Source: a virus
Lineage: Duplodnaviria; Caudoviricetes
Direction: 5' to 3' (one strand)
Length of the DNA: 64,000 nucleotides
IMG/VR virus record: IMGVR_UViG_3300031746_000008
Span: 1-64,000 of that record
Each line of letters begins with the position of its first letter. Positions within the stretch are counted from its first letter, which is position 1. Of this stretch, positions 2,438 through 28,259 are shown piece by piece. The position numbers and the translations under genes were made by a program. The notes below the pieces were generated by a model. That model was not told the DNA's origin. It made no database searches and saw nothing but the letters and a program-made list of their open reading frames with translations.

Positions 2438-3125
2438 GATGGTCGTGGATTTTTTTGATTAGAATTTTAAATTCTTCTTCTGTGTGATCCCATTTCATTT
2501 TATTAACGTCTCTACTCACCCATTGCAAATTTTTAATCTCTCTTTTAAGTTCTGGAAATTTCCCAGAAGGTAAAATGTGATCTATAGAGTCGTTTGTCCC
2601 GATAATAATTTTATCTCCGGTATATGGACAAATATATTTTTGTTTCTCAAGTATCTGTAATAGATCTTTATAAAAGGTTTTTGATCCAAGATTATTTAAC
2701 GAACAATTTTTTAGATGGCAATCAGAACACCAGATTATATTTTCAAGTGATTTATTTTTCCCACATAGGGTGCATAAACCAAGATCCTTTAATCGGGAGT
2801 GTCTCAACTCAGTAGTTTTTCTGCGAATATCTACGCACGCTCTACAACATTTAAATCCCTCGTCGGGTGGTCTTTGGCCGCAAAGAACACATAAATTATT
2901 ATTAAATCTTTTTAATCTAACTCTTTTGTCTTTTTCAACAATATAAACCACACATTTTTTACAACACTTATTTCCTTCGGCAGGTTTATCTCCACATTTT
3001 GGACAAAGATTTTTAGATAATCTTTCATTATAAATATATTTCTGTTTTTCATTTTCTTTCTTTCGGCAAGATTTGCATCTACTTTTTTCACTTTTATTAC
3101 CACAAATATGACATTTCTTGTTCAT
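2427..3125 (-). CDS. Zinc-finger-repeat HNH endonuclease, paralog of 415-1176
   Basis: CxxC repeats plus CPYTG...NDSIDHILP...NLQWVSRDVNKMK; start re-called to ATG 3125 (AAGGAG RBS). Confidence 0.75.
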   Translation of the reverse strand: MNKKCHICGNKSEKSRCKSCRKKENEKQKYIYNERLSKNLCPKCGDKPAEGNKCCKKCVVYIVEKDKRVRLKRFNNNLCVLCGQRPPDEGFKCCRACVDIRRKTTELRHSRLKDLGLCTLCGKNKSLENIIWCSDCHLKNCSLNNLGSKTFYKDLLQILEKQKYICPYTGDKIIIGTNDSIDHILPSGKFPELKREIKNLQWVSRDVNKMKWDHTEEEFKILIKKIHDHLKL

Positions 3126-3194
3126 GCGAGTCTCCTTTACAAACAATTCTAAGTGGTTTATACACAATCATGGGAAATTTTTTGGAGAAAATAA

Positions 3195-4124: not shown

Positions 4125-4136
4125 ATATCTGGGGAG

Positions 4137-4823
4137 ATGATAATAAATATGTCCGCATTTGTTAATTTAATTGGGAAAAGATTTGGTCGATTGGTTGTTA
4201 TTGGAAGAGTAGAGAATGATAAATATAACAAAATAAGATATTTGTGTAAATGTGATTGTGGCGAAGAGAAAACGATTCTCAGAAATAGTCTTGTGTCCAA
4301 ACGAACAGTAAGTTGCGGATGTTTACAAAAAGAAAGGGCAAAATCGGTTAACGCAAAGCACAATCACACAAGAAGTCCAATATATAGCGTTTGGCAAAAT
4401 ATGATACAGAGATGTAATAATTATAGAAATAAGCAATATAAAGATTATGGCAAAAGAAAAATAAAAGTTTGTTATAGGTGGTCGAATAAAAATACAAACG
4501 GATTTGAAAATTTCCTAAAAGATATGGGATATCCACCCACCAATAAACATCAAATAGACCGAATAGATAACAACAAAGGCTATTATAAAGAAAATTGTAG
4601 GTGGGTTTTACCCAAAATTAATTGTAGAAACAAAAGAAATAATCACACATTAAAATATAACAATAAAGAACAATGTATCACGGACTGGTCAGAAACCACT
4701 GGGATAAATAAAAAAACAATTAAATCAAGAATAGAAAGAGGTTGGTCTCCAGAAAAGACACTAACAACGCCCGTCAGAAAAATAAAAAGAAAAATAAAAA
4801 ATATAAGAAGTAGAAGAAGTTGA
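4137..4823 (+). CDS. Homing endonuclease-like protein, HNH family A
   Basis: LIGKRFGRL..CKCDCG..SCGC..DYG..IDRIDN..GY..NCRW; real start may be ATG 4149. Confidence 0.8.
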   Translation: MIINMSAFVNLIGKRFGRLVVIGRVENDKYNKIRYLCKCDCGEEKTILRNSLVSKRTVSCGCLQKERAKSVNAKHNHTRSPIYSVWQNMIQRCNNYRNKQYKDYGKRKIKVCYRWSNKNTNGFENFLKDMGYPPTNKHQIDRIDNNKGYYKENCRWVLPKINCRNKRNNHTLKYNNKEQCITDWSETTGINKKTIKSRIERGWSPEKTLTTPVRKIKRKIKNIRSRRS

Positions 4824-5089
4824 ACCGTACCAGGAGACGACAAATGTATAGATTAGTAATTACTTACGAAGGCTATAACGAAGCTTTCGACAACCTAATA
4901 AGGAAAACTGTTTCCTCAAAAGAAATAGGAAGTGGCTATGGAATGGGCGAAAGAGATATATCTTTTGAATTTAAAACATTAAAGGAGTTAATTGGTGCGG
5001 GTAGACGAGTAGAAAATAATAAAAAACTAAAAAGGAAAGTAGAAGTTTTGGCATATAACGATGATAATAAAGTCAAATTACCAAGATAA
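4820..5089 (+). CDS. Hypothetical protein within the Ub locus
   Basis: ORF with CAGGAG RBS before an internal ATG (MYRLVIT). Confidence 0.55.
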   Translation: MNRTRRRQMYRLVITYEGYNEAFDNLIRKTVSSKEIGSGYGMGERDISFEFKTLKELIGAGRRVENNKKLKRKVEVLAYNDDNKVKLPR

Positions 5090-5100
5090 GGAGAATTAAC

Positions 5101-5769
5101 ATGTCGGTAGCCACAATAGATTTAACCAATAGAGATATTAGACAACGCGAACTAGTTCCAGCAGAAAAACTAAAAAACTTGAGTACAATGATTATCGGGG
5201 TTGGCGCGATAGGAAGGAACCTTGCTATACAATTATCGGCTATAGGAGTACAAAAATTAAAGATTGTTGATTTTGATACTGTTGCTGTTGAGAACCTCGC
5301 CACACAAGGCTTCTTCGAGGAGGATTTGGGCAAACCGAAAGTTGAGGCAGTAATGGAATTGTGCAAAAGTATCAATTCTGGAATATCAATTGAATCAAAG
5401 AATATGAAATTTAACAATAGCATATTTCAAGGGGGCGTGGTCTTCGTTTGTGTGGACAGCATTGGCGTTAGGAAAGAAATATTCAATGGGATATGTAATA
5501 AATGTGATTTATTTATTGATGGTCGCATGTCCGCAGAATATATGAGAATTCTAGCCGTAAGTGACCTGGAATCTAAAGAATACTATGAAAAACAATTTTT
5601 TACACAAGAAGAAGCGTATGTCGGAAGTTGCACGGCGAAATCTACTATATATGCAGCATCAACGGCAGCTAGTATTATGGTTGCCCAATTTTGTAGGTGG
5701 ATGAGAGATATTCCAATCGAAAAAGAAGTATGTATAAATTTACTCAGTATGGAAATGCGGTGTTTATAG
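5101..5769 (+). CDS. E1/ThiF-family adenylyltransferase (Ubl-activating enzyme)
   Basis: RDIRQ arginine finger, GVGAIG, DFDTV-x-x-ENL, KPKV, CVDS, IDGRM, candidate catalytic Cys in GSCTAKS. Confidence 0.9.
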   Translation: MSVATIDLTNRDIRQRELVPAEKLKNLSTMIIGVGAIGRNLAIQLSAIGVQKLKIVDFDTVAVENLATQGFFEEDLGKPKVEAVMELCKSINSGISIESKNMKFNNSIFQGGVVFVCVDSIGVRKEIFNGICNKCDLFIDGRMSAEYMRILAVSDLESKEYYEKQFFTQEEAYVGSCTAKSTIYAASTAASIMVAQFCRWMRDIPIEKEVCINLLSMEMRCL

Positions 5770-13899: not shown

Positions 13900-14145
13900 A
13901 TGACAGAAGAGACGACTCAAATCAAAGACGTGAATCATGCTTATGAAGTGGTTGAAAGAAATCTTGAGGATGGGACAGTTACTTTGCGTATAAACAAGGG
14001 AATTCTGGGGGCACTCGGCAACCAACTCAAGTCCACGTCGGATAAGAAAAGAAAAGGAGCTTCAATTTTACGCAAATTGGGCTACGACCTAGCTGATGCG
14101 GGAGATTTTTTGTATAGTAAACAAAATCAAGGAAGTGTGATTTAA
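13900..14145 (+). CDS. Hypothetical protein
   Basis: AAGGAG RBS. Confidence 0.6.
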   Translation: MTEETTQIKDVNHAYEVVERNLEDGTVTLRINKGILGALGNQLKSTSDKKRKGASILRKLGYDLADAGDFLYSKQNQGSVI

Positions 14146-14148
14146 AGA

Positions 14149-14823
14149 ATGCTAGATTTAAAGGGAAAGAAATTTAATAAATTAACGGGAATCCAACCAA
14201 CCAAAAAGAGAAAAGATAATAAAATAGTTTGGTTGTGGAAATGCGATTGTGGCAAAGAGCACGAAGCCACGGGGAGAGATGTAAAAAGTGGGCATACAAA
14301 AAGCTGTGGCTGTCTAAACATAGAACGTGTAACCAATATGGGCAAGGCCAACAAGACACACGGACACGCCAGCGGAGGAAAATTATCAAAAACATACATG
14401 GTCTGGAGCAGTATGTTGAGAAGATGTAGAGACAAAAATCATAAAAGTTTTCCGATTTATGGGGGTAGGGGCATAACTGTTTGTAAAGAATGGCTCCCGG
14501 AAAACGATGGTTATAATAACTTTTTAAAAGATATGGGAAAATGCCCCAGGGGACATCAAATAGATAGAATAAATAATGATAAATTAATTAGAGGGTATTC
14601 TCCTGAAAATTGTCATTGGACAACATCCAAAATAAATAATAGAAACAGAAGAAGTAATCATCTAATCCCATTTAACGGGAAAGAATTAACTATAGTAGAG
14701 TGGTCAGAAATAACAGGTATCAATAAAAGAACTATTCTAAGACGAATAGCCGCCGGTTGGACTCCCGAAGAAGCCCTAACAATTCCACCAGACACCCGCC
14801 ATAATTGGAGAACTAAAAAATGA
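14149..14823 (+). CDS. Homing endonuclease-like protein, HNH family A
   Basis: DLKGKKFNKL..CDCG..SCGC..YGGRGI..IDRINN..NCHW. Confidence 0.8.
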   Translation: MLDLKGKKFNKLTGIQPTKKRKDNKIVWLWKCDCGKEHEATGRDVKSGHTKSCGCLNIERVTNMGKANKTHGHASGGKLSKTYMVWSSMLRRCRDKNHKSFPIYGGRGITVCKEWLPENDGYNNFLKDMGKCPRGHQIDRINNDKLIRGYSPENCHWTTSKINNRNRRSNHLIPFNGKELTIVEWSEITGINKRTILRRIAAGWTPEEALTIPPDTRHNWRTKK

Positions 14824-15584
14824 ATCACCAAGAAGCAAATGAGTTATTCTTAAAAAAGAGCAAAGGAAAAGAATTCCCAATAACCCAAGAGGACCAAATA
14901 GAAAAAAATACAGTTCAACTAGAAAAAAATGTTACCTTAGAAAAAGTCAATAAGTCTTTTATAATTAATTTATATTCTACACCAATAATTACCATACTAC
15001 CAAACGGATTATTCAGATTATCTACAAATGGACAATTAACAAATCTAACAAAATCACGAATGGAAAAATATAGTCCCATTAAATTAAAACAAATAGATGG
15101 CTGGTTTTGGATAATTGATAAAAAAGAAAAGATATTGTCTTTATATTATGAAAGAGTTTTAATAGATAAAAACGGTAAAATCCCAGTAAAAATAAGTGAA
15201 AAATCTATAATATTTAAACGATTAATTTTAATTTTAAATAAAATAATAGATCAATTATCAGATTATAAAATCAACAGTATTTTTGGAAAATCTTTTTCAA
15301 AAAATGAAACAAATAATTTAATAGAATTATTAAAATATTCTTCAAAAGATTTACGATCAATATATTTTAATTCTAATTACAATATAATTTTAAATATGGA
15401 TCAATTGATATATGATATGTTAAAATTTGGTAACATAAATCAATATGATTCATATAAAAATATATCAAATAATTTTAGATCTAAGGAAAGTTTCTTCAAA
15501 GCATATTTTATCCCATATGCATTAAATCAATTAAAGTTTGTCTTAAAACAAAATATAAAAGAAAAAGAGAAAATAGATGCTTGA
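14820..15584 (+). CDS. Hypothetical phage protein
   Basis: 254-aa ORF coupled (ATGA) to the upstream gene. Confidence 0.65.
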   Translation: MNHQEANELFLKKSKGKEFPITQEDQIEKNTVQLEKNVTLEKVNKSFIINLYSTPIITILPNGLFRLSTNGQLTNLTKSRMEKYSPIKLKQIDGWFWIIDKKEKILSLYYERVLIDKNGKIPVKISEKSIIFKRLILILNKIIDQLSDYKINSIFGKSFSKNETNNLIELLKYSSKDLRSIYFNSNYNIILNMDQLIYDMLKFGNINQYDSYKNISNNFRSKESFFKAYFIPYALNQLKFVLKQNIKEKEKIDA

Positions 15585-16048
15585 CAAAGAAATAAAGTGC
15601 GAGTTAAGGCGAATTCTGCGAAAAGCCGGTAGAGACCCGGAGATCATCAATCAGAAGCTCTCCTCTAAGCATGATAATGATGAGATTAGATTACTCTTAG
15701 AACATATATCTTTGGTTGTAGAATATCTATTATTTGATGCGCAGGCGAGTCGATCAGAGTTATTCGATTTAAAGAGATTAAATGAATACGGAGATAATTA
15801 TGGAGATGCCGGAAAATTTAATTGAAAAAGTAATTTGGGATCGACATATTACAAATGATACTTTGCGAGAATGTATTGCTCATCAAAAAATTTGTTTTGC
15901 TACAAGAAAATATTCTGCAAATGACCGGATATCCCGCGAAGAGTGGGAAGATAATATGCAGAGATCTCGTGAAGAAAATAAAATGGATAAAAAACGCGAC
16001 GATATTTTTAAACAGATATTTAATTAAAATAAATGGACAATATAATTT

Positions 16049-16690
16049 ATGAATAATTTAATTGGACAAAGATTCGGTAGATTATTAATTATAAAAAGAA
16101 TATTAACTATAACTAAAAGAAGATTAAGATGGTTGTGTAAGTGTGATTGTGGGAATCAAAAAATAATTCTTTCAGATTCCTTGAAAAGTGGCAAAACGAA
16201 AAGTTGTGGGTGTCTGCAAAAAGAAACAGCAAAGATATTTAGTACGAAACATGGTTTATATCAATTGAATATCTATAATTCATATCATAATATGAAACAA
16301 AGATGTAATAATCCAAATAATCATGCATACAAAGATTATGGCGGTCGTGGAATAAAAGTTTGCAAAAGATGGTCCGGCTCAAGGGGATTCTTAAATTTTC
16401 TAGAAGATATGGGACAACCTCCAACTAATAAATATCAGATAGATAGAATAAATAATAACAAAGGTTATTATAAACGAAATTGTAGATGGGTTGTTTCTAA
16501 AAACAATAACAGGAACAGAAGAGACAATCTTATAATTGAATATGATAATAAAAAACAATGTATGTCTGCTATGGCAGAAGAATATAATATGAATCCGCAT
16601 GTACTAAGAGACAGATTGTCTAGCGGTCAATCAATAGAAAAAGCTTTATTAACGCCTGTTAGAAAATATATTAAAAGGAAAAATAAATGA
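16049..16690 (+). CDS. Homing endonuclease-like protein, HNH family A
   Basis: LIGQRFGRL..CKCDCG..SCGC..DYGGRGI..IDRINN..NCRW. Confidence 0.8.
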   Translation: MNNLIGQRFGRLLIIKRILTITKRRLRWLCKCDCGNQKIILSDSLKSGKTKSCGCLQKETAKIFSTKHGLYQLNIYNSYHNMKQRCNNPNNHAYKDYGGRGIKVCKRWSGSRGFLNFLEDMGQPPTNKYQIDRINNNKGYYKRNCRWVVSKNNNRNRRDNLIIEYDNKKQCMSAMAEEYNMNPHVLRDRLSSGQSIEKALLTPVRKYIKRKNK

Positions 16691-18243
16691 CCAATAATAA
16701 TTTTCATACTGATCTCGTCGATTATTTATTGTCGGGCCACGCTTTGTTATCAATTGATACTTTTGAAAAATCAAGATGTATTGATCATATATCAAAATGC
16801 GCTAAAGAAATAAATAGAAAAATCTTTATATGGTCGGCGGCAACTTCGTGGGTAGATGAGAAAAACTGCAAAGTCGGGGGCACAACGGGCCAATTACCCC
16901 CAGAAGAAGTCATAAAATCTATAAATGAAATGCAAGAGAATTCAATTTTTATATTGAAGGAATTCTGTATATATTTACATCACGAAACATACAATTCATT
17001 TGATATGGCAATTTCGTGGCTAGAGGAAACAAGAGAAATTTTAAGTAATTCGTGTAAAACAATCATCTTCTTGGATTCAGCTTTCAAAGCCCCGAACTGT
17101 TTAAAAAATGATATAACTAACATTGACTTCCCTCTACCGCAAAAGAACGATATCGAAAATAATATAAAATTCATTTGCGAAGGCGTGAGCACAAAAGACG
17201 ACACCAAATTCGAACCCGCACAAGAACTATTGCCAGATATTGTAAAATCCTGTTGTGGGATGACGAACACCCAAATAATTGATCGTCTAGCTCTTTCAAT
17301 AAGAAAACACAAAGATTTTAATCAAGATGCTTTAAAAACTATCTTGTCAGAAAAGGCTTCGGTAATAAAAAAATCTGGAATATTGCAGTATATAGAACCC
17401 CCTCCAGGTGGATTGAATAACATTGGTGGATATGGTGCGCTTAAAAATCATCTAAAATTAGATAAACCATGTTTTTCCGATGAGGCAAGAGATTTTGGTA
17501 TTAGATATCCTCGTGGACTTATGTTGGTAGGAATTCCTGGCTGTGGAAAATCTTTGATTACAGTTGCAATTGGATCTGAATTTAACTTGCCATTAGTAAG
17601 TTTAGATATTGGGTCGATTATGTCACAATATGTAGGTAGTTCAGAAAGTAATATGCGAGAGGCGATTAAAATTATAGAAAGTGTTGCTCCGTGTGTACTT
17701 GTTTTGGACGAAATAGAGAAAGGATTGGCAGGCTCCGGCGACTTAGACGGTGGAGCAAGTCGGCGAGTATTTGGTACATTTTTGAAATGGCTTTCTGATA
17801 GAATAGCACCAGTTTATCTTGCGGCTACAGCAAATGATATTAATGGTATTCCCGTAGAATTTTTGCGAAGTGGTCGATTTGATTGTGTTTTTGCACTGGA
17901 TTTACCTAATGATCTTGAAAGAAAATCAATTTTTAATATTCATATATCAAAAAGAAAACGAGAACCATCAAATTATGATATGAAATCTTTAGTAGAAAAA
18001 ACAAATGGGTTTACGGGAAGTGATATTGAAAATAGTATTGAACTAGCATTGAAAATTGCTTTTTGTCAAAAAACAGAATTATCCCAGAGTCATTTAGAAA
18101 TAGCAATTGAATCTACAATTCCATTATCTAAACTTGAACCAGAAAGAATTCAGAAAACAAGAGAATGGGGACTAAAACATGCTCGTAATGCCAACAGTCC
18201 AACAGAAAGAATTGTAGATAAAAAAAGAAAGGTTTCGACGTAA
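16687..18243 (+). CDS. AAA+ ATPase, Ycf46-like (classical AAA clade)
   Basis: Degenerate N-terminal AAA module plus active module: GIPGCGKS, YVGSSE, VLDEIEK, ATAND, RSGRFD, GFTGSDI. Confidence 0.9.
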   Translation: MTNNNFHTDLVDYLLSGHALLSIDTFEKSRCIDHISKCAKEINRKIFIWSAATSWVDEKNCKVGGTTGQLPPEEVIKSINEMQENSIFILKEFCIYLHHETYNSFDMAISWLEETREILSNSCKTIIFLDSAFKAPNCLKNDITNIDFPLPQKNDIENNIKFICEGVSTKDDTKFEPAQELLPDIVKSCCGMTNTQIIDRLALSIRKHKDFNQDALKTILSEKASVIKKSGILQYIEPPPGGLNNIGGYGALKNHLKLDKPCFSDEARDFGIRYPRGLMLVGIPGCGKSLITVAIGSEFNLPLVSLDIGSIMSQYVGSSESNMREAIKIIESVAPCVLVLDEIEKGLAGSGDLDGGASRRVFGTFLKWLSDRIAPVYLAATANDINGIPVEFLRSGRFDCVFALDLPNDLERKSIFNIHISKRKREPSNYDMKSLVEKTNGFTGSDIENSIELALKIAFCQKTELSQSHLEIAIESTIPLSKLEPERIQKTREWGLKHARNANSPTERIVDKKRKVST

Positions 18244-18912
18244 ATGAATAGGTTCATAGATTTAACCGGACAAAGATTTGGAAAACTTATCGTGGATAAA
18301 TATATAGGTAAAAACAAATGGAGACATATCAGGTGGCTATGTTCGTGTGATTGTGGGAATAAATCCGAAATAAGCGGATGTAATTTATTGTCTGGTAAAA
18401 CTAAAAGCTGTGGATGTTTTGCGAAACAAATTAAAACAAAACATGGATACGCCAAGAGAAATAAAAAATTAAGAGTTTACCAAATATGGTGTGATATGAA
18501 GAAAAGATGTAATAATAAAAATGCTCAATTCTATAGAGACTATGGCGGCAGAAATATTAAGGTTTGTTATAGATGGGCAAATAAGAAAAATGGATTTCAG
18601 AATTTTCTAGAAGATATGGGTGAACCACCATCAACAAAACATCAAATTGACAGAATTAATAATAGTCTAGGATATTACAAAGAAAATTGTCGATGGGTTA
18701 CATCCAAAGAAAATAATAGAAACAGAAGAGATAATCGTGTGTTCAAATATAATAATAAAGATCAGTGCGTTTCAGCATTGGCCGAAAAATATAATATTAA
18801 AAGATCAACATTGTCATCAAGAATAAATAGAGATAAACTTTCAATAGAAGAAGCTTTAACAATTCCTATAAATAAACAACAGCGGAGAAAGAAAAATGCC
18901 AGAAGAAATTAA
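18244..18912 (+). CDS. Homing endonuclease-like protein, HNH family A
   Basis: DLTGQRFGKL..CSCDCG..SCGC..DYGGR..IDRINN..NCRW. Confidence 0.8.
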   Translation: MNRFIDLTGQRFGKLIVDKYIGKNKWRHIRWLCSCDCGNKSEISGCNLLSGKTKSCGCFAKQIKTKHGYAKRNKKLRVYQIWCDMKKRCNNKNAQFYRDYGGRNIKVCYRWANKKNGFQNFLEDMGEPPSTKHQIDRINNSLGYYKENCRWVTSKENNRNRRDNRVFKYNNKDQCVSALAEKYNIKRSTLSSRINRDKLSIEEALTIPINKQQRRKKNARRN

Positions 18913-19840
18913 ATTATTTGATCTTGGATGTTTAATAAATTTAAAAATCGGCTATTGGAGTGCTCGCAAAATGGTTTCACGAGCCGACTTAATAAGCGTT
19001 GGCCTTGATCCAGACGCATTGCCGAAAGATCTTGTGAACTATGGGCGCAAATTATTGGTTTCTAAAAATGAAATTCAAGCCATAAGCAAGGTCGAACAAC
19101 GTGCCCGTTCATATCTTGCAAAATATAGTGCTCCTTTTGAAGCGGCTAATTGTTTCTTCGTTCCAAATAAAATGATTCCAGATCTAGAACACAATCTTAA
19201 ATGTTTTAGAAAAGATTTTTTTGATGTAGTAGACAGCTTTATTTCTCGTTTTAATGACCTGAAAGACGAAGTAAAGAAACAGCACCCTGAATTTTTTGAA
19301 AAATGCTTAAGACAATTCTATCCGTCAACAGCAGAATCTTTGAGGTCAAGATTTTATTTTGAGTGGCATATGTTCACAATCAGTAATATTAATTCAATAC
19401 AACAAACCTCTTCTGAAGAAATTGAATTAAAAAGAGAAAAATTGCAGAAAGAAGCAAATAAGTTTGCAGAAAATTATATTCAAACTATGAGAAAAGAAGT
19501 TGTTGATTTTTGTACTTTGATGGAATGCAGAGTTAATGGAAAAATTTATGGTGATGAAAGTGATCCAAAACAGCTTACAGGAAGAAGTTTAGCATTTTTT
19601 AGAAAATATGTAACAAAATTCCGAAACATGAATATATTCGGCGACAACGAAATTGAAAAAATGCTTATCGAATTTCAAAACAACTATTTGGATCTCGGAG
19701 TTACATCAAAAAGTTTTGATAGCGCAGCAATGAAAACGGCAGTATCACTATCCTTGTCAAGCATCCGTAAACAAGCTTCTCTTGAAGAAGGCGAGGGTTC
19801 GCAGTTTATCAATTCCCTCAAGAGAAAGGTAATTATATGA
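18896..19840 (+). CDS. DUF3150-like helical protein
   Basis: L-x-IGYWSARK...LP-x-x-L-x-x-GRKLL N-terminus; position after the AAA ATPase; family recalled, not searched. Confidence 0.55.
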   Translation: MPEEIKLFDLGCLINLKIGYWSARKMVSRADLISVGLDPDALPKDLVNYGRKLLVSKNEIQAISKVEQRARSYLAKYSAPFEAANCFFVPNKMIPDLEHNLKCFRKDFFDVVDSFISRFNDLKDEVKKQHPEFFEKCLRQFYPSTAESLRSRFYFEWHMFTISNINSIQQTSSEEIELKREKLQKEANKFAENYIQTMRKEVVDFCTLMECRVNGKIYGDESDPKQLTGRSLAFFRKYVTKFRNMNIFGDNEIEKMLIEFQNNYLDLGVTSKSFDSAAMKTAVSLSLSSIRKQASLEEGEGSQFINSLKRKVII

Positions 19841-20100
19841 TAAAAAATAATGGAAAATATATATTAAATATAATTCATTATGATGACATAGGTTTAAATA
19901 AAGAAATTGAAAAAGTGGTTGGTGAAAAAAGTAATGGCTCTGGCGAATGTAATTTTAATGGTTTAATAGATTGTAGTGGAGCAAAATATATATTCTGGAA
20001 TTTTGAAACGTCAAAAAAAGCAGAAGATATTGTTGATAAATTAAAGAAAAATAAAGAATTAATAAAAAAACTTCACATTAGTATTGTCAAAGGAAAATAA

Positions 20101-20466
20101 ATGAATAAAGAAAAACATGAAACAAATTTAATAATAAAAGAAATACGAGATTTAATTTCCGTAAAATGTTTTTATATTCAATTATATGAAAATCAAGGCA
20201 TAATAATTGAAGTTGCGTGGGTTTCAGGTACAAATCTTGATCTTAGTACATATCCAATTATCTATGTTCAAGATTTTAATAAATGGACAATGAAAAAATG
20301 TATCACCTTAGATCAATTAACTTATAAATTAAACGAATTAAAATCACGTATTGGTAGTATTTGTAGATTATGCGACACTGTTGCTAAAAATAGAAGAGTA
20401 AACAAAGTAGAATTTTTTGAAAATTTACTAGAAAGGGCAGAATATAAATGCAAACAAAAAAAATAA
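20101..20466 (+). CDS. Hypothetical protein
   Basis: AAGGA RBS; abuts ORF 19837-20100. Confidence 0.55.
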   Translation: MNKEKHETNLIIKEIRDLISVKCFYIQLYENQGIIIEVAWVSGTNLDLSTYPIIYVQDFNKWTMKKCITLDQLTYKLNELKSRIGSICRLCDTVAKNRRVNKVEFFENLLERAEYKCKQKK

Positions 20467-20522
20467 CATATGATGAAGTTATACAACAAATTACGGAGAT
20501 ATGTCAACTACCCACCGATAAA

Positions 20523-21671
20523 TCAGGTGAGCTTGCGAGAAATTAATCCCGTGATTGGCGAGTTGACAATCGCCTGCCCTTCAAGGATGTTGCCACCCAG
20601 GTAGGGGAGATTTGAGCGTTGGGCTAATACGTGAGAAGCGTTAACATCTGCATCATATACTAGGCCGCTCTTTGAATAAAACCTACATCCCACTCTTTTA
20701 CCTTCTCTTTTTCCGGTAACAGAATCAATTTGAGAAGAAAATTTTGGGCAAACTCTGACCACTAACTTACCAATTAGTGCGGCTTTGTAGGTTAGAACAT
20801 CCAGGGTTTCTGCAAAACCAACTTGACTACGCCGGTTTACATTATCTTTAAAATGTTTTTTTGTTTTAATGCTTTTCGCGTTTAAATTTTCAACAACAAC
20901 AACATTTGCCTTAGTCTTTAATAGAACATTAACTAATTTATGTCTAAATTCTTTATTTATATTTCGTTCTTTGTGACGAAGTTTTTTCAATTGACGAGTA
21001 GCAGATTTAGCTTTAAGTCTACGCTTTAGAAAACGTATCTTTCTTAATTGTTTTTTATAGTCTTTGTCTAAAAAGATTCTGCCATCGCTTGTAGCAGCAA
21101 ATCTCCGACAACCAAGATCAACACCTAGTGCAAGTTTGGGCTCAACTAAGAGAGTGGAGACCTTAAAAGGTAAGCAAATCCAAATATCATTGTTTTCACA
21201 AAAAATGGTTGGATCACTGAAAAGATATTTTTCCAAAAATCTGGTAAGCCTCTCATAAATACATAAAGAAACTTCCACTCGTTTTTTCAATGTTGTAATA
21301 CGAAACGCTGTATTTTTATAGGAGTATAATCTTTTATCCAACGTAAGCGACAGCCTTTTCTTTTCGCAGGGTTTAGTAATTTTATGTTTATTGCTTTTAG
21401 CGGAACGATAGGCCGATAAAACAGCTTGTTCTGCCTTAATAACTAGTTGAGACTTTATTTCTGGAAATTCGTTTCGTACACGCCGGTACGCTTTATCGTG
21501 GAGATTTTTAATACCATTTTTACAATTCAAGTATCCATTTTCATTAACACTAAAATGCAAAGGAGAAATTTCATTAAACAAAAGCCTGGAGGATTCAAGA
21601 ACTTCAAATAACGCTCTTTTATCTTCCTCGTTTTTAAAAATCAATTTTGTCTTTAATGCCAACGTTTGCAT
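20523..21671 (-). CDS. tnpB: RNA-guided endonuclease TnpB
   Basis: RuvC triad GVDLG / VVENL / DADVNA; 382 aa; stop codon inside the right-end hairpin. Confidence 0.9.
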   Translation of the reverse strand: MQTLALKTKLIFKNEEDKRALFEVLESSRLLFNEISPLHFSVNENGYLNCKNGIKNLHDKAYRRVRNEFPEIKSQLVIKAEQAVLSAYRSAKSNKHKITKPCEKKRLSLTLDKRLYSYKNTAFRITTLKKRVEVSLCIYERLTRFLEKYLFSDPTIFCENNDIWICLPFKVSTLLVEPKLALGVDLGCRRFAATSDGRIFLDKDYKKQLRKIRFLKRRLKAKSATRQLKKLRHKERNINKEFRHKLVNVLLKTKANVVVVENLNAKSIKTKKHFKDNVNRRSQVGFAETLDVLTYKAALIGKLVVRVCPKFSSQIDSVTGKREGKRVGCRFYSKSGLVYDADVNASHVLAQRSNLPYLGGNILEGQAIVNSPITGLISRKLT

Positions 21672-21676
21672 ACTAT

Positions 21677-21685
21677 ATTATACAC
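21677..21685 (-). promoter_or_regulatory. GTGTATAAT promoter motif, probably giving a leaderless tnpB mRNA
   Basis: Minus strand reads GTG-TATAAT-ATAGT-ATG; no SD sequence. Confidence 0.55.
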
Positions 21686-21806
21686 CAAATATCATTTAAA
21701 AGATAAAAAATATTAAATTTTATTAAAAATATGCAATATTCGAGGAGGTAAGATCGTCTTTCCTCCCTATATTGAAATAACAGGGTTTCCGGACGAGGTA
21801 ATTATT

Positions 21807-21950
21807 ATGAAAACAGATGGAAGATTTTGTATAACAGAATGTATGGAGGCTTGGCCCGCAAGATTTGTGGATCTGTCAAACGGCGACGAGCACGGAACAA
21901 GCGAAAATACAATGGTAGAACCACTTTCTCTTCAGGTTACGGACAATTAA
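21807..21950 (+). CDS. Small hypothetical protein starting at the IS insertion site
   Basis: 47-aa ORF MKTDGRF...; GAGGT 7 nt upstream lies inside the IS end; stop is 1 nt before the next ATG. Confidence 0.45.
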   Translation: MKTDGRFCITECMEAWPARFVDLSNGDEHGTSENTMVEPLSLQVTDN

Positions 21951-21951
21951 A

Positions 21952-22302
21952 ATGAAAATTTTAAATAAATTCAAAGGATTTTCTTCTCATAGATACAATA
22001 GAGAACCCTTAGAAAAATTGTTTGCCGAATGTTGGCAAGAAGAAAACACCCAATTAGCTGTAAGAAATTGTACTTTGGATCATTTGTTTTCAGGGAATGT
22101 AGATGAACATTATGTTGAAATTCAATCTAATGAAAATTACAAACTTGCAGCGACACTAATTCAGTGGTTAGGAAGTCCGGTCGGCCAAGGATTTTTGGCT
22201 CACGTAATAGAAAAAGCGATGAACAAAAATATACCAATGCCAATGTTTGAGCCGGTAAGTGGTTGTTTTGGTAAAAGCTTAACTGATCCGGGACGGAGAT
22301 AA
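21952..22302 (+). CDS. Hypothetical phage protein
   Basis: AAT-x-IQWLGSPVG motif. Confidence 0.65.
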   Translation: MKILNKFKGFSSHRYNREPLEKLFAECWQEENTQLAVRNCTLDHLFSGNVDEHYVEIQSNENYKLAATLIQWLGSPVGQGFLAHVIEKAMNKNIPMPMFEPVSGCFGKSLTDPGRR

Positions 22303-22947
22303 TTGATGGATTTAATCGGGCAAAGATTTGAAAGACTTCTCGTTATTAAACAGGACGGTAGAAATAGATCCAACCAAATACTTTGGTTATGCTTGTGTGA
22401 TTGTGGAAAAGAAATAAAAGTAACATCCGGTGATTTAAAAAGTAAACACACAAAAAGCTGTGGATGTTTTAGTAAAGAACAAACAATATTAAGAAATAAA
22501 AATAGAACCAAGCACCAAAAATGCAAAACTAAAATTTATTATATATGGTCGAGTATGATTTCTAGATGTAACGACAAAAATCATAAAGCATACAAGAACT
22601 ATGGAGGAAGAATCCCTCCAATTACAGTTTGTAAAAGATGGTCAAATAAGAAAAACGGATTTGAAAATTTTTATAAAGACGTTGGCGATCCACCATATAA
22701 AAAATCTCTTGATAGAACAGACAATAACAAGGGGTATTTTCCAGGTAACTGGAGATGGGCAACAAACAAACAACAACATAGAAACATGAAAACTAACATA
22801 AACATTAATGGATTGTGTTTAAAAGATCATTGCAAAAAATTTAATCTAAATTATCATACGATAATGACAAGGATAGATACATACGGATATTCTATGGAAG
22901 AAGCTTTAACAATACCAATAAGAAAATATAATAGGAGAAAAAAATAA
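22303..22947 (+). CDS. Homing endonuclease-like protein, HNH family A
   Basis: DLIGQRFERL..CLCDCG..SCGC..YGGR..LDRTDN..NWRW. Confidence 0.8.
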   Translation: MMDLIGQRFERLLVIKQDGRNRSNQILWLCLCDCGKEIKVTSGDLKSKHTKSCGCFSKEQTILRNKNRTKHQKCKTKIYYIWSSMISRCNDKNHKAYKNYGGRIPPITVCKRWSNKKNGFENFYKDVGDPPYKKSLDRTDNNKGYFPGNWRWATNKQQHRNMKTNININGLCLKDHCKKFNLNYHTIMTRIDTYGYSMEEALTIPIRKYNRRKK

Positions 22948-23360
22948 TGTCCCTTTATTGTCAAATTGAAACTGCTATGAAAAATCAAGAAGCTTTAATT
23001 TTTGCTTTGATGGAAACTGGCTTGTGGCAAAGGGAACAAATAGAAATTTATGATGAACCACAACATCTTTTCGGATATAGGGGAGATTTAAGACAAGATA
23101 AAGCTAATATTATTATTCGTCGTAAAAATGTGGGTCCGAGTTCTAATGATATAGGATTCCAAAGAAATGAAGATGGAACATTCAAAGCCATTATTTCAGA
23201 GTTTGATAAATCAAAATACAACCAATCATGGATAGACAAGCTCAAGGCAAACTACGCTTTCCAAGCTATTCGTCTACAACAAGAAAAGAAAGGCAGACAA
23301 GTATCTAGAACCAAATTACCAGACGGTAAACAGAGGGTAACAATTCATGGATATAGATAA
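22947..23360 (+). CDS. DUF1257 (Ycf35-like) protein
   Basis: MS..I.T...L..AL...LFGYRGD.R..A.IIIRR..V...SNDIGF...DG.F.AIIS.FD pattern. Confidence 0.75.
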   Translation: MSLYCQIETAMKNQEALIFALMETGLWQREQIEIYDEPQHLFGYRGDLRQDKANIIIRRKNVGPSSNDIGFQRNEDGTFKAIISEFDKSKYNQSWIDKLKANYAFQAIRLQQEKKGRQVSRTKLPDGKQRVTIHGYR

Positions 23361-23569
23361 AGGAAAATGAAATGCAAAAAATATTATATTTTAACAGCGA
23401 GGGATACTGTACACTAATAAGAGATAAGGAAACAATTTTTACCATGTTCTGTGAATTGCCGGAAGATTTTATTCCTGAAGGAATACCTATTGAAGAATTT
23501 GTTTGTAATCCAAAATTTAGAATAACAAATGGTCGTCATGTAAATAAAGGAAGTGTATGTTAAAATTTT

Positions 23570-24241
23570 ATGTTTATTAAAGGTTATATCTCTGGTATTT
23601 ATAGAATAACCTGTTCATCAACAGGAAAATTTTATATAGGAAGTGCTATTAATCTTAAAAGACGGTTCGAGTTTCATTTATCTAGATTAAAAAACGGAAA
23701 TCATATCAATACCTATTTACAAAACTCATGGAATAAATATGGAAAAGAAAATTTTAAATTTGAAATAATTGAAATTGTTTATGATATAAAAAAATTATCA
23801 ATAAAAGAACAATTGTGGTTAGACCAAACAAAATGTTATAATTCAAATATTGGATTCAATATTTCTAAAAATACTATTACTCCAATGTTGGGCCGGAATC
23901 ATACAAGAGCAACAAAAGAAAAAATAAGCAATTCTAAAAAAGGAACAAGGCTCACCAAAGAACATAAATTAAAATTAAGTATTGCTTTAAAGGGACGACA
24001 CCGACCCAGTTTAGTTAAGGAAAAAATTAGAAAAGCACAGATTGGTATCCCGAAACCACAATCAAGTCAACCAGGAAGTAAGCACGGAGCAGCTACAATA
24101 AACGAAAAAACAGCGATAGACATTATAAGAGATCATAAAAAAGGATTGTCTTATAAGGAATTAGTTATAAAATATGGAGCCAGCTATAAAACAATTTGGT
24201 TATTGACACATAAAATAACATGGAAACATATCAAGGAATAA
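23570..24241 (+). CDS. GIY-YIG homing endonuclease with NUMOD3 repeats
   Basis: SGIYRI..FYIGSA..R..H..LQNSWNKYG; H-T-x-x-TKEKIS repeats. Confidence 0.9.
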   Translation: MFIKGYISGIYRITCSSTGKFYIGSAINLKRRFEFHLSRLKNGNHINTYLQNSWNKYGKENFKFEIIEIVYDIKKLSIKEQLWLDQTKCYNSNIGFNISKNTITPMLGRNHTRATKEKISNSKKGTRLTKEHKLKLSIALKGRHRPSLVKEKIRKAQIGIPKPQSSQPGSKHGAATINEKTAIDIIRDHKKGLSYKELVIKYGASYKTIWLLTHKITWKHIKE

Positions 24242-24246
24242 AATAA

Positions 24247-24363
24247 ATGAGCGATTTAGTCCGATCATATAATTTTAAGGACGTAGCAATTTGCCAAAAA
24301 GAAAATATTTGTAATAGTAGGCTAGACGCAAAAAATAGAGGGGAAATAAGGGAATATAGGTAA
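24247..24363 (+). pseudogene. Duplicate N-terminal fragment of the downstream GMP reductase-like gene
   Basis: MSDLVRSYNFKDVAICQKENICNSRLDAK aligns with MFKKSYKFSDIAIYQKENICKSRLDTK at 24989. Confidence 0.75.
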
Positions 24364-24989
24364 TGGGCAAATTTATTGATTTAACGGGATTAAAATTTGG
24401 AAGATGGACAATTCTTAAACAAATAAACACCAACAAAAAGAAATCTAGATGGAAATGTGAATGTAGTTGCGGAATCATAAAAAATATAGACGGATATAGT
24501 TTAAGAACAGGAGATTCAAAAAGTTGCGGATGCCTGCACAAAGATATAATGACCAAACATGGGCTTAGCAATTCTCATATTGATAAAATATGGAAATCTA
24601 TGATTCAAAGGTGTACCAACCCCAAAAATCCAAGATATAAAGATTACGGAAATAGAGGCATTACGGTTTGCAAAAGGTGGTTGCCTAAAAATAACGGATT
24701 TATTAATTTTCTTAATGACATGGGACTACCGCCAAGCAAGAAGCATCAGATAGATAGAATTGATAACAATAAAGGATATCATAAAAAGAATTGTCGATGG
24801 AGCACCAATAAAGAAAATAATTACAACAGAAGAGATAGCCATATGTTAACATATAAAGGTAAAACACAATGTATTGCAGCCTGGGCCGAAGAATATAATC
24901 TTCCTTACGATACACTTCGGACAAGAATAAGGAGGGGTTGGAATATTGATAGAGCATTAAACGAACCCATCAGGAGAAAAATAAAATAA
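24363..24989 (+). CDS. Homing endonuclease-like protein, HNH family A
   Basis: DLTGLKFGRW..CECSCG..SCGC..DYG.RGI..IDRIDN..NCRW. Confidence 0.8.
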   Translation: MGKFIDLTGLKFGRWTILKQINTNKKKSRWKCECSCGIIKNIDGYSLRTGDSKSCGCLHKDIMTKHGLSNSHIDKIWKSMIQRCTNPKNPRYKDYGNRGITVCKRWLPKNNGFINFLNDMGLPPSKKHQIDRIDNNKGYHKKNCRWSTNKENNYNRRDSHMLTYKGKTQCIAAWAEEYNLPYDTLRTRIRRGWNIDRALNEPIRRKIK

Positions 24990-27055
24990 TGTTTAAAAAA
25001 TCATATAAATTTTCTGACATAGCAATTTATCAAAAAGAGAATATTTGCAAAAGTCGGCTTGACACAAAAATAAAAAGCGAGATAATTCGCGGAGTAATCC
25101 GTCCACTTCCCCTTTTGGCAGCGAATATGTCAACAGTCACGAATGCGGAATTCTCGATAGGGCTTTATAGGCTTGGGGCTATGGGGGTTTTACACAGAGC
25201 TTTTCCAAATACAGATGATTATATATCGGAAACAAAAAAAATAACAAAGGAAATTCCCTCTGTTGCGGTTTCCATTGGAATAAAAGATTCAGATTATATA
25301 TTGGTTGAAAAATTAATAAAAGCTGGATCTAACATTATTTTCGTCGATGTAGCTCATGGTTTTAATAAATATGCATTACAAATGTGCCAACATATAAAAA
25401 AATTCTATCCAACAATAAAAGTTGTCGCCGGAAATACTATTAATCCTGATATGATAGGGATGTTCAATGATTATGTAGATGCAATAAAAATCGGCATAGG
25501 TGGTGGTAATTCCTGTTCGACGGCGACAGTAGTTGGTTGTACAAAAAATCAATTTTCTGCTATCTATGATTTAAAAGAAATCTCACAAAAATATGGTATG
25601 CCAATCATTAGTGACGGGAACATTCGTTGCCCCGCCGATTTCACCAAAGCTATCGGGGCAGGAGCTAGTTGTGCTATGGCTGGTAGTATATTCGCCAGAT
25701 GCCCAGAGAGTGCTTCAGAAACGATAGAAATTGATGGGATAAAGAAGAAAATTCTGGCGGGCATGTCATGTTATAGCGACGACACAGAAATATTAACCAT
25801 CAATGGATGGAAAAATTTTTCAGAAATAAAATTATCTGACGATTTAGCAACTTTAAATACAGAAACAAAATTAATGGAATTTCAAAAACCAACAAATATT
25901 TTTAATTATAATTATAACGGGGAAATGATAAATATAAATCATAAAGCTATTGATTTATTAGTAACACCAAATCACAGAATGTATGTTGCTAAACGAGCAA
26001 GAATTAAGGATGGATATAAAGAAAAATTTAAATTCGTTAAGGCGGAACGGTGTTGTAAGGAAAATTTTAAGTATCAAAAAATATGCGGATGGAAGGGAGA
26101 ATATTCCAAATTTTTTAAGATACCCGATGTTGTCTCTGGATATAAAAATAAATATAAGAAAATAGGAACAAATTTTCTGACAGAAGAATGGATTGATTTT
26201 TTTGGATTCTGGTTAGCAGAAGGGTGGGCAAATAAAAGAATATCAAAATCAAAAAAACATATCAGTTATAATCCTAATCATTTTGTGTATTCCATAAGTA
26301 TTTCAAATAATAATAAAAAATTGATAAATCATTATGTAACCTTATTAAGAAAATATAATATTGGTTCCTTTGTAAGAAAAAGGAATAAAAATTATGAACT
26401 TACAATACAAAACATGCCCCTTTGCAGTTATTTGATGAAATTTGGGAAGGCTCATGAAAAATTTATTCCGAAAAAAATTAAAAATCTACCGACTAAATTA
26501 TTAGAGATTTTAATAAATTCAATATTTCTCGGTGACGGTTGTAAAAACAGAAATTCTATAACTAGTTCTTCCACTAAATTTATAGACGATATATCAGAGA
26601 TATGTATAAAATGTGGATTAACTCCAACAATTCACTTGAATCATCCAAAGGGATCTTTAGGAGAAATTAATGGGAAAAGTTTCGTTAGAAAATATGATTC
26701 ATTTTCTGTTTATGTAGGTAAATATTGGCATAACCCCACCATCCTCCCAAAACACTATAGTTTTATAGATTATAGTGGCAAAGTGTATTGCGCAGAGGTT
26801 CCTAATGGAATATTATGTGTAAGAAGAAACAATAAATATACGTGGTGTGGCAATAGTGAATATGTCCAGAATAAATGGAAGGGTGGTTTAAAACCAGGAA
26901 CTTCGGCAGAGGGCAAATTAATTCATCTTGACATAGGAGAACCAGTAGAATCACTTTTAAATAGGTATGCGGGGGCATTAAGAAGCGCGATAAGTTATGC
27001 CGGTTTTGATAACATTCAAGATTTTCAGAGGGGGTGTGAATTTCTTCTGATATAG
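24989..27055 (+). CDS. guaC: GMP reductase / IMP dehydrogenase family enzyme with intein
   Basis: AANM, DVAHG, AGN, KIGIGGGNSC, SDG, GMS|S, AEG, LRSAISY; extein about 326 aa without CBS domains; GuaC versus GuaB not resolved. Confidence 0.75.
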   Translation: MFKKSYKFSDIAIYQKENICKSRLDTKIKSEIIRGVIRPLPLLAANMSTVTNAEFSIGLYRLGAMGVLHRAFPNTDDYISETKKITKEIPSVAVSIGIKDSDYILVEKLIKAGSNIIFVDVAHGFNKYALQMCQHIKKFYPTIKVVAGNTINPDMIGMFNDYVDAIKIGIGGGNSCSTATVVGCTKNQFSAIYDLKEISQKYGMPIISDGNIRCPADFTKAIGAGASCAMAGSIFARCPESASETIEIDGIKKKILAGMSCYSDDTEILTINGWKNFSEIKLSDDLATLNTETKLMEFQKPTNIFNYNYNGEMININHKAIDLLVTPNHRMYVAKRARIKDGYKEKFKFVKAERCCKENFKYQKICGWKGEYSKFFKIPDVVSGYKNKYKKIGTNFLTEEWIDFFGFWLAEGWANKRISKSKKHISYNPNHFVYSISISNNNKKLINHYVTLLRKYNIGSFVRKRNKNYELTIQNMPLCSYLMKFGKAHEKFIPKKIKNLPTKLLEILINSIFLGDGCKNRNSITSSSTKFIDDISEICIKCGLTPTIHLNHPKGSLGEINGKSFVRKYDSFSVYVGKYWHNPTILPKHYSFIDYSGKVYCAEVPNGILCVRRNNKYTWCGNSEYVQNKWKGGLKPGTSAEGKLIHLDIGEPVESLLNRYAGALRSAISYAGFDNIQDFQRGCEFLLI
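25769..26854 (+). mobile_element. Intein with LAGLIDADG endonuclease in the guaC-like gene (362 aa)
   Basis: CYSDDTEILT start, VTPNH block B, GFWLAEG and FLGDG motifs, ends WCGN|S. Confidence 0.9.
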
Positions 27056-27064
27056 AGACTAAAT

Positions 27065-27388
27065 ATGTTAAATAAAGATACAGTATTCTGTTTTACTGGC
27101 AAAGGCCCATTCTCTCGTAACAAAATGACAGATATAGCTATCAAGGCTGGAGCATCGGTCACAAAATCTGTCACTAATAAAACAACTATACTAGTTATAA
27201 TGGATATGAATAGCCAATCTATCAAGGCAAAAAGGGCTCGTGAAAATGGCATAGATTTGATTGGCCCACAAACATTTTTTGTAATGTGTAATATAAAAAA
27301 TAATACGTATACTGAGCATAAAGCTGAGTTTGAACAAAAAATTATTGCAGAACAAACCAAAAAACTATTGAGGAAAATAATTCTATGA
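27065..27388 (+). CDS. Stand-alone BRCT-domain protein
   Basis: FCFTG..SR....GASVTKSVTNKTTILV...S.K..RA..NGI, as in the NAD-ligase BRCT domain. Confidence 0.8.
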   Translation: MLNKDTVFCFTGKGPFSRNKMTDIAIKAGASVTKSVTNKTTILVIMDMNSQSIKAKRARENGIDLIGPQTFFVMCNIKNNTYTEHKAEFEQKIIAEQTKKLLRKIIL

Positions 27389-27626
27389 AAATTAAAAAAA
27401 TAGGAAACACAACGAGGGTGTGGTTGTCCCAAAACGACACGTTTAAATGGAGTCGCAGACCTAATGCGCAATGGCCCTGTTCTACAATAAGCGACAGAAG
27501 AGTATATGTAGAATTAAATGGTGCAAACGATATCGTTAATGTAAAAATAAATGGGAGAGATGCAAAAGATCTAGATTCCCACGAATTGAGATGTTGCCTC
27601 AACGATTTGACGAAAGGAAAATAATA

Positions 27627-27884
27627 ATGCAAATACCTATTATGGAAATAAATGAAAAAGGCAATATATCAACGATTTATAATGATTTTATAGATTTATA
27701 TGATCTAGGTTTAGTAACAAATATCCGTAGAGCATCTCATATTTTGTTTAATCAAGAAAAACAATATTGGGAAATTATAAACGCACAAACAAATGAAATT
27801 GTCTCTCAAAATAAGATTAGAGATAAGTGCGTCGAATGGGAGATAGAAAATTTTCAATGCGGGGGTAAATATTATAATGAATAA
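27627..27884 (+). CDS. Hypothetical protein with IRRASH motif
   Basis: IY-x-D-x-IDL-x-x-LG...IRRASH...W; AAAGGA RBS; overlaps the DUF2997-like gene. Confidence 0.65.
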   Translation: MQIPIMEINEKGNISTIYNDFIDLYDLGLVTNIRRASHILFNQEKQYWEIINAQTNEIVSQNKIRDKCVEWEIENFQCGGKYYNE

Positions 27885-28068
27885 TAAAAAAATTATAGTA
27901 GATATAACCAAAACAGGAGATGTGTCAATAGAAGGAAATAATTTCGTCGGACCTGAATGCGATCACTTTATAAAAGAGATAGCAGATTCAATAGGTAAAA
28001 CAATTTCTTCTGCGAAGAAAAAAGAATACAATATGAAAACCAGCACTAAGCAGAAAGAGAGAAATTAA
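27877..28068 (+). CDS. DUF2997-like protein
   Basis: I-x-V-x-I-x-x-x-G-x-V-x-I...F-x-G-x-x-C....I...IG....K-x-EY. Confidence 0.7.
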   Translation: MNNKKIIVDITKTGDVSIEGNNFVGPECDHFIKEIADSIGKTISSAKKKEYNMKTSTKQKERN

Positions 28069-28259
28069 TGAACAGCATATTAAATCAATCTGCCACTAAG
28101 AAATTTATATTGGCAAAAATAGCGGCACTTAGACCAGGATTTGAAAAACAAATTACTAGAGTTAGCAAATTAGCAATTGAAAATTACGAAGCAAGACTTC
28201 GCGCTATGATAGAATCAGATATAATGATTCACCCATCAGTAGGAAGGACATTTAAATGA
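28068..28259 (+). CDS. Putative histone-fold protein
   Basis: 63 aa, basic; S-x-x-KK...TRVS-x-x-A...long helix...GRT resembles prokaryotic histone L1/L2 loops. Confidence 0.45.
   Translation: MNSILNQSATKKFILAKIAALRPGFEKQITRVSKLAIENYEARLRAMIESDIMIHPSVGRTFK

Follow-up and report, generated by a model that had tools for sequence, protein, structure and literature searches.

A five-gene AAA+ ATPase module, scattered by mobile genes in a Caudoviricetes genome, is probably a system of its own and no appendage of the neighbouring ubiquitin-like cassette

The closest described counterparts of the locus analysed here are found in cyanobacteria and red-lineage plastids, which encode Ycf46 (an AAA protein, slr0374), Ycf35 and a DUF2997 protein. 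The DUF2997 and Ycf35 genes are adjacent in cyanobacteria according to an excerpt of PMC4284462, and a section of PMC7496141 describes the ycf46 operon as stress-induced and of unknown function, with loss of Ycf46 lowering EcaB activity. The same three Pfam families form the core of five genes (16687 to 28068) in the window, by which we mean the whole 64,000-nucleotide stretch analysed, the first 64 kb of the 81.7-kb virus record IMGVR_UViG_3300031746_000008 (Duplodnaviria; Caudoviricetes). Unlike the cyanobacterial and plastid set, the phage set adds a DUF3150 protein and an IRRASH-family protein and lies among phage replication and nucleotide genes. Two further systems bear comparison. Like Cdc48, p97 and VAT, the AAA protein of the phage set belongs to the classical clade, has intact motifs and an aromatic pore loop, and has small partners encoded alongside it. 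However, it has one tier where they have two, its N-domain has no named relative, about half of its family has lost the aromatic residue of the pore loop, and no ubiquitin-binding cofactor was found with the set. IetAS/SgiAT is presented in part of PMC10954446 as a toxin-antitoxin pair of an AAA-ATPase and an S8 protease. The phage AAA domain likewise matches the IetA and IteA models, and both systems reside on mobile elements, whereas the phage set is without an S8 protease partner and its partners are DUF families absent from PADLOC. Our overall reading, to which we give a probability of roughly 0.6, is that the five genes are one autonomous, mobile-element-borne module, here scattered, and no appendage of the cassette for a ubiquitin-like protein (Ubl) that lies upstream at 163..5769 and includes a ThiF-type E1 and a JAMM-like protein.

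The five genes have open frames on the plus strand. The first encodes a single-tier, classical-clade AAA+ ATPase of 518 amino acids (16687..18243; Pfam PF00004, E 3.3e-23, 83 bits against a cut-off of 21.2), followed by a DUF3150 protein of 314 amino acids (18896..19840; PF11348, E 4.2e-22, 79.1 bits against 24.9). A Ycf35-type DUF1257 protein of 137 amino acids comes next (22947..23360; PF06868, E 4.5e-12, 46.5 bits against 22.2), and the set closes with the 85-amino-acid IRRASH-family protein, which contains the string NIRRASH (27627..27884; alternative start 27591), and a DUF2997 protein of 63 amino acids (27877..28068; PF11211, E 1.8e-8, 34.5 bits against 24.1). The IRRASH open reading frame (ORF) overlaps the start of the DUF2997 gene by 8 nucleotides, which in turn overlaps the next ORF, at 28068, by 1 nucleotide. 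The module spans 11.4 kb, with at least 12 other ORFs interspersed. An earlier note on this DNA had described five co-oriented genes partly split by mobile genes and had assigned their DUF families. Both statements hold, as all five lie on the plus strand with mobile or accessory inserts between them, and the Pfam check puts the AAA, DUF3150, DUF1257 and DUF2997 proteins above the gathering scores.

The same families recur around relatives of the AAA gene in other viruses. Relatives were found on 294 viral contigs (alignment A1), and the analysis used the best 80 of them together with flanks of 10 kb; these 80, the window and three deposited phages make up 84 viral sources, or 83 fetched loci without the window. 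Iterative profile searches (jackhmmer) seeded from the window and run on all ORFs detected DUF1257 in 39 of the 84 sources, DUF2997 in 38, DUF3150 in 28 and the IRRASH protein in 25, and the module families cluster around the AAA gene in 44 of the 83 fetched loci. Twenty sources, namely the window and L004 to L022, form the window's clade, within which the AAA proteins are at least 48% identical. Since L007 and L008 share one layout, as do L014 and L022, counts within the clade overstate the number of independent observations. Outside the clade, the full set of five is packed into about 4.2 kb at four loci, in the order AAA-DUF3150-DUF1257-DUF2997-IRRASH in L054 and L070 and IRRASH-AAA-DUF1257-DUF2997-DUF3150 in L029 and L073. 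In Pseudomonas phage SM1, the AAA gene is followed by genes for 201 and 319 amino acids, DUF1257, DUF2997 and a 116-amino-acid homologue of the window's IRRASH protein (blastp 5.8e-7), so that the set is complete save for a recognisable DUF3150. Agrobacterium phage JP1 carries the AAA gene, two further genes, DUF1257 and DUF2997, and in both phages the module sits between the lysis genes and DnaB. More broadly, AAA relatives of 27–34% identity are present in 132 deposited phage records.

The module families also surround AAA genes in cellular genomes, in 29 of a sample of 79 AAA loci from many phyla. DUF1257 and DUF2997 together accompany the AAA gene in 19 of these 79 loci and DUF2997 alone in a further 9, whereas DUF3150 is found in none and the IRRASH protein in one. 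Because of this difference between the viral and cellular family counts, we distinguish a three-gene core shared with cells from two phage-typical accessories. These results confirm, in viral and cellular loci alike, what the earlier note had stated, that AAA-DUF1257-DUF2997 is a conserved uncharacterised cluster; that the IRRASH protein travels with it is borne out by the 25 viral sources, by SM1 and by the four compact loci. Plasmids carry parts of the set as well. Full-length relatives of the AAA protein occur on cyanobacterial plasmids (31–34% identity over 90–97% of the protein). On one such plasmid, from Nostoc, two DUF1257 genes, a DUF2997 gene and the AAA gene lie within 4.5 kb, and the profiles for DUF3150 and IRRASH do not match the neighbouring genes for 355 and 85 amino acids at E ≤ 1. 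AAA relatives are present in 678 plasmid records, 574 of them conjugative, and DUF3150 relatives in 811 plasmid records, the host genera of the two groups being similar. A single plasmid of IncA/C type was inspected (L104; Aeromonas salmonicida plasmid NC_009349.1, 5964-10126); here, a longer DUF3150 protein of 425 amino acids is encoded between YqaJ recombinase and VWA-domain genes, and the record holds no AAA of the module family. Our literature search, which excluded subscription journals and supplements, found no publication describing the phage module; it returned no paper joining ubiquitin-like, JAB, ThiF, phage and Cdc48, and none of the AAA, Ycf46 and phage papers dealt with the module.

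The AAA protein consists of a family-specific N-domain (residues 1-232), an AAA domain (about 233-470) and a C-terminal tail. It belongs to phrog_8638 (1.2e-116), a family of unknown function, and its best match among solved structures in a profile search of the PDB is the D2 domain of Cdc48/p97 (E 1.8e-72, query 233-470). The score against TIGR01243, the model of the Cdc48/p97 family, is 91.9 bits compared with a cut-off of 802.65. Walker A (K288, in GIPGCGKS), Walker B (D341 and E342, in VLVLDE), sensor 1 (N383) and the arginine fingers (R394 and R397) are all in place, and these catalytic residues are invariant in the 36 sequences of A1 used for motif counts and kept in 170–177 of the 179 members of a wider set of the family. 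Judged by its sequence, the protein lacks none of the catalytic residues that a functional classical AAA+ enzyme needs, in agreement with the earlier assignment to the classical clade. Pore loop 1 reads Y315-V316-G317 (codon 315 at nucleotides ~17629-17631), and position 315 is aromatic in 29 of the 36 close relatives. The N-domain matched nothing but unnamed clusters in the Atlas. Compared with the AAA domain it gave an hhalign probability of 0.1%, which rules out a second, degenerate tier.

Alignments of the partner proteins (A2 to A4 and A7) leave out the deposited phages L001 to L003, and duplicate sequences were dropped beforehand. In the DUF1257 family (A2), the N-terminal Met-Ser is invariant, and the C terminus is Gly-Tyr-Arg within the clade; many distant members also end with an aromatic residue. 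Relatives form 4982 representative clusters at E ≤ 0.001, and the domain starts at residue 1 in nearly all of the best 150 of these 4982 matches, which points to a functional free N terminus. The DUF1257 model is of high quality (predicted local distance difference test score, pLDDT, 91.3; predicted template modelling score, pTM, 0.83), and no fold was assigned to it: the best Foldseek match is Bcs1 (E 0.04, TM score 0.34), and a wide VIA-align search found no solved fold relative (best Z 6.3, root-mean-square deviation (rmsd) 3.1, 84 residues aligned). Sequence-profile searches of the PDB with DUF1257 and DUF2997 returned nothing below E 0.001. DUF2997 (A3) shows a G-F-x-G-x-x-C motif with one near-invariant cysteine and a KPEY-type tail. 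The DUF3150 model (pLDDT 83, pTM 0.73) starts with a small beta-sheet region and continues in long helices. Foldseek matched it to no PDB entry at E ≤ 0.001 (best 0.24), and the best hits of a wide VIA-align search (Z 8.4, rmsd 3.3, 107 residues aligned, confined to residues 181-308) are generic helical bundles below the level of helical noise that hardly cover the N-terminal half. In BFVD, its structural matches are all uncharacterised or DUF3150 phage proteins, and the top one is of the latter kind (E 2.2e-12, TM score 0.70). The IRRASH protein represents a conserved family (A7, 21 sequences) with the core motif (R/K)-A-S-(N/H)-V-E-F and has no match in Pfam, NCBIfam or PADLOC. The best evidence here that two of the partners work as a pair is P0384, a natural fusion of DUF1257 (residues 20-131) with DUF2997 (147-193), and the two proteins probably pair physically. 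Two other fusions were seen: P0327 joins DUF1257 to an APH-type phosphotransferase domain, and P0310 joins it to an endonuclease VII domain, the latter probably through the calling of a homing-endonuclease gene as one with its neighbour.

No fewer than seven mobile or accessory genes break up the copy of the module in the window. HNH homing endonuclease genes of phrog_374 abut the start of the AAA gene (16049..16690, plus strand, 6.7e-65), separate AAA from DUF3150 (18244..18912), lie just 5' of DUF1257 (22303..22947) and stand between DUF1257 and IRRASH (24363..24989). The block between DUF3150 and DUF1257 contains, in addition to this HNH gene, a minus-strand TnpB gene (20523..21671; PF01385 1.3e-10, PF07282 4.9e-9) and ORFs for 87, 121, 47 and 116 amino acids within 19837..22946. 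Between DUF1257 and IRRASH lie plus-strand genes identified by Pfam as a GIY-YIG endonuclease (23570..24241), a GMP reductase/IMPDH-family enzyme with a LAGLIDADG intein (24989..27055) and a BRCT protein (27065..27388). The nearest relative of the window, L004, whose AAA protein is 91% identical, does not have the block from 19841 to ~22600. Its DUF3150-DUF1257 gap is 222 nucleotides and holds just a remnant of an HNH gene, a truncated form of the copy at 22303, and an insert of its own of ~1.9 kb separates IRRASH from DUF2997, which overlap by 8 nucleotides in the window. In L005, the HNH gene after AAA is absent and the GMP reductase is intein-free, with 325 amino acids versus 688 in the window. 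The GMP reductase occupies this position in 20 clade sources and the BRCT protein in 13, and neither is found in the compact distant modules. Because the inserts of L004 and L005 differ from those of the window, the interruptions are recent and variable and the five genes are the constant part. L004 is also a mosaic relative to window positions 8642-28068, with some stretches 100% identical and others 57–91%, and over 23570-27624 the two are 100% identical at the protein level. This pattern points to recent recombination or homing-driven exchange.

Taken together, it is very likely that the five genes form an autonomous conserved module. How the module works can be proposed more tentatively, and adaptor-guided remodelling of a target protein has, in our estimate, somewhat less than an even chance of being correct. 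The AAA protein would assemble into a hexameric ring that remodels or unfolds a specific protein at the expense of ATP, with its 232-residue, family-specific N-domain serving as a docking platform. DUF1257 and DUF2997 would form a heterodimer acting as the dedicated adaptor of the ring or as its regulated client, and DUF3150 and the IRRASH protein would be phage- and plasmid-specific accessories that aim the motor at its target in the early or replication phase of infection.

Several observations weigh against this reading. With the profiles used, the AAA gene stands alone in 39 of the 83 viral loci and 50 of the 79 cellular loci; the sensitivity of the profiles is limited, as illustrated by Mycobacterium phage Dylan (cluster O), an AAA carrier in which a 275-amino-acid protein matches the DUF3150 model by structure alone (E 3e-3). 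The lone DUF1257-DUF2997 fusion could be an artefact of gene calling. As no solved fold matches the model of either DUF3150 or DUF1257, the role of an adaptor has no structural backing. The pore-loop aromatic is kept in 71 of the 179 family members, with Leu or Ile in 92, so full threading of substrate may not be the common mode of the family, part of which may remodel without threading. Finally, in 2 of 11 module-bearing records outside the clade, a ThiF gene is present immediately behind a Prok-JAB gene, at distances of 21 and 59 kb from the AAA gene. Counted over metagenomic records outside the clade, the pair is present in 2 of 8, and JAB-ThiF pairs may be weakly enriched with the module. 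These two records and the constant proximity of the cassette in the clade when present may therefore reflect a facultative link.

A different explanation, which we regard as unlikely, is that the module is a conflict system for anti-defence, exclusion or addiction and stability, comparable to IetAS/SgiAT, in which the ATPase restrains a toxic or effector partner or disarms a host defence protein. The PADLOC IetA models match the AAA domain at 2.3e-23 and NCBIfam IteA at 1.3e-21, and the spread over phages and conjugative plasmids, patchy across phyla, is that of conflict genes. However, the matches are limited to the generic AAA domain, the IteA score being 77.1 bits versus a curated cut-off of 510. 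No S8 protease is encoded among the ORFs of 13900-34339, and DUF3150, DUF1257, DUF2997 and the IRRASH protein match no PADLOC model. Moreover, the core is also conserved in cyanobacteria and plastids (excerpts of PMC4284462 and PMC5940233), for which a housekeeping or stress role fits better.

The earlier note had proposed instead to read the module as the downstream arm of the Ubl system, with the AAA protein acting like Cdc48/p97 on proteins tagged with the phage Ubl and possibly feeding ClpP. The cassette consists of a 78-amino-acid ThiS/MoaD-like Ubl ORF that ends in SKVEGATL (163..399), a Cys-rich protein of 399 amino acids, p399 (1238..2437), a JAMM-like protein with an HTHPS motif (3195..4124; PADLOC JAB models 1.8e-5) and a ThiF-type E1 of 222 amino acids (5101..5769; PF00899 2.7e-24), all on the plus strand, and it is itself broken by HNH genes. 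Relatives of the Ubl end in KVEGAN, KIEGA or KVDGA, a Gly-Ala tail with no Gly-Gly, in keeping with the note's statement that the module occurs near Ubl operons with KIEGA endings. The C-terminal third of p399 is packed with CxxC pairs. The Ubl, p399 and the JAMM-like protein have no Pfam match at E ≤ 0.01. A relation to PRTRC systems found no support, as ThiF scored 26.7 bits against TIGR03736 (cut-off 144.75) and no other PRTRC model matched.

In favour of a link between cassette and module, Ubl-p399-JAMM-ThiF lies 2–11 kb upstream of the AAA gene on the same strand in 15 of the 20 clade sources, and of the five others, three are truncated on the upstream side. A search that started from ThiF returned 18 viral loci. 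Sixteen of them share at least 50% identity with the ThiF of the window, and these sixteen all belong to the clade and have the module downstream. The closeness of the AAA domain to Cdc48/p97 D2, the two distant JAB-ThiF records described above and a ClpP gene in the window (43282-43911) also fit. However, this synteny lies within one phage lineage and thus amounts to one effective observation, and two clade members with the full module, L015 and L021, have no ThiF in records that are 86% and 84% complete. Outside the clade, ThiF is absent from 9 of the 11 module-bearing records, three of them 93–100% complete, and neither ThiF nor JAMM occurs within 8 kb of the AAA gene in any of the 79 cellular loci. 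Conversely, the module AAA is found in none of seven other ThiF-bearing phage records, namely two with distant ThiF relatives (77% and 85% complete) and five deposited phages (FpV4, cr85_1, PhiXhv-12, Dulem virus 41 and Acinetobacter MD-2021a), while a positive control recovered the AAA in five of five known carriers. In the deposited phage records, 50 with a ThiF and 132 with the AAA, there is little overlap in host genera between the two groups. The two gene groups are separated in the window by unrelated genes, including an RNA ligase, an endonuclease V-type glycosylase and many small ORFs. Searches of the cassette and module proteins recognised no E2 or ubiquitin-binding cofactor; family scans of the module proteins matched no Ubl-binding family, a negative limited by partner folds that match no solved one. 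ClpP is present in 4 of 10 tested module-bearing records and absent from 6, and thus does not co-occur consistently. Neither the downstream arm nor its action with ClpP is therefore upheld, co-occurrence with the cassette being synteny inside one clade, and we consider this explanation quite improbable. A narrower version, in which the AAA module was recruited in this one clade beside the Ubl-E1-JAMM cassette and ClpP into a virus-encoded ubiquitin-proteasome-like pathway, is a long shot. If it were true, KVEGA-tailed Ubl tags would be read via DUF1257, DUF2997 and the IRRASH protein, and the AAA ring would unfold the tagged proteins for degradation.

It is likewise very doubtful that the module is a chaperone for the assembly or activation of a redox or nucleotide-metabolism enzyme, with the cysteine of DUF2997 involved in metal or Fe-S handling. 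The near-invariance of this cysteine and the GMP reductase gene inside the module in the 20 clade sources are compatible with such a role. So are reports, in excerpts of the respective papers, that DUF2997-Ycf35 is clustered with the ferredoxin gene fed7 in cyanobacteria (PMC4284462) and that the ycf46 operon is responsive to stresses, iron among them (PMC7496141). However, every compact distant module is without the GMP reductase, a single cysteine cannot bind a cluster alone, no metal-binding family was matched, and we found no link from the AAA protein to any enzyme. That the five genes are chance neighbours in a gene-dense region, as their spread over 11.4 kb and a promoter and terminator scan of the window without operon signal (promoters at chance, 93 sites compared with 84.7 ± 9.5 expected) might suggest, is refuted by the recurrence of the families together, in varied orders, in unrelated phages and cellular genomes, and by close relatives that differ in the intervening DNA and keep the five genes.

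Regarding the host, the module had been taken as a hint at Planctomycetota, and this is not sustained: the G+C content of the window is ~31%, the cellular relatives of the AAA protein come from many phyla and reach no more than 39% identity, and Planctomycetota contribute 3 of the 79 cellular loci, as counted from record titles. The window contains no tRNA genes.

Coding in the window is nearly all on the plus strand, and the module is surrounded by genes for nucleotide metabolism and repair. Four plus-strand genes next to it are of uncertain membership, each confined to the clade in the jackhmmer searches and without a family match in general library scans. One, directly 3' of DUF2997, encodes 63 amino acids (28068..28259; 16 of the 84 viral sources). 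The others, 5' of AAA, encode 81 (13900..14145; 19 sources), 254 (14820..15584; 11 sources) and 82 amino acids (15577..15825; 19 sources), and an HNH gene (14149..14823) lies amid them. In all, eight HNH paralogues of phrog_374, 46–54% identical (A6), occupy the first 30 kb, tight against or overlapping their neighbours: 4137-4823, 5780-6439, 14149-14823, 16049-16690, 18244-18912, 22303-22947, 24363-24989 and 29418-30077. Inteins interrupt three genes, the GMP reductase/IMPDH gene (24989-27055, LAGLIDADG), ThyX (40412-42136) and the large subunit of ribonucleotide reductase (48416-51445, LAGLIDADG/Hom_end). An IS200/IS605 element with TnpA and TnpB lies on the minus strand at 36943-38371, the closest TnpA relatives of which are on metagenome contigs (96% and 88% identity); the TnpB-like gene at 20523-21671 is a second, solo one.

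Elsewhere in the window, 30280-32677 encodes a P-loop kinase (AAA_33) and, after it, a fusion of a metallophosphatase with a T4-Rnl1-type RNA ligase. With a second RNA ligase (6684-7679) and an ATP-dependent DNA ligase (28256-29398), these genes look like an RNA-repair kit. A BrxL-like protein of 466 amino acids (35210-36610) has the BrxL_N and BrxL ATPase domains (E 7.9e-101; PADLOC BrxL 1.6e-117). It covers the front ~470 of the 680–698 positions of the BrxL models and leaves the rear uncovered, and represents a component of a defence system on a phage.

The analysis suggests that the Ubl cassette and the AAA module are to be studied as two systems and not as one. The window illustrates the degree to which homing endonucleases can split up a module of several genes while leaving every gene intact. 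In cyanobacteria and plastids, Ycf35 (DUF1257), DUF2997 and Ycf46 have long counted as conserved proteins of unknown function, and the presence of the same core in cultured Pseudomonas and Agrobacterium phages offers tractable systems in which the target of the motor might be found.

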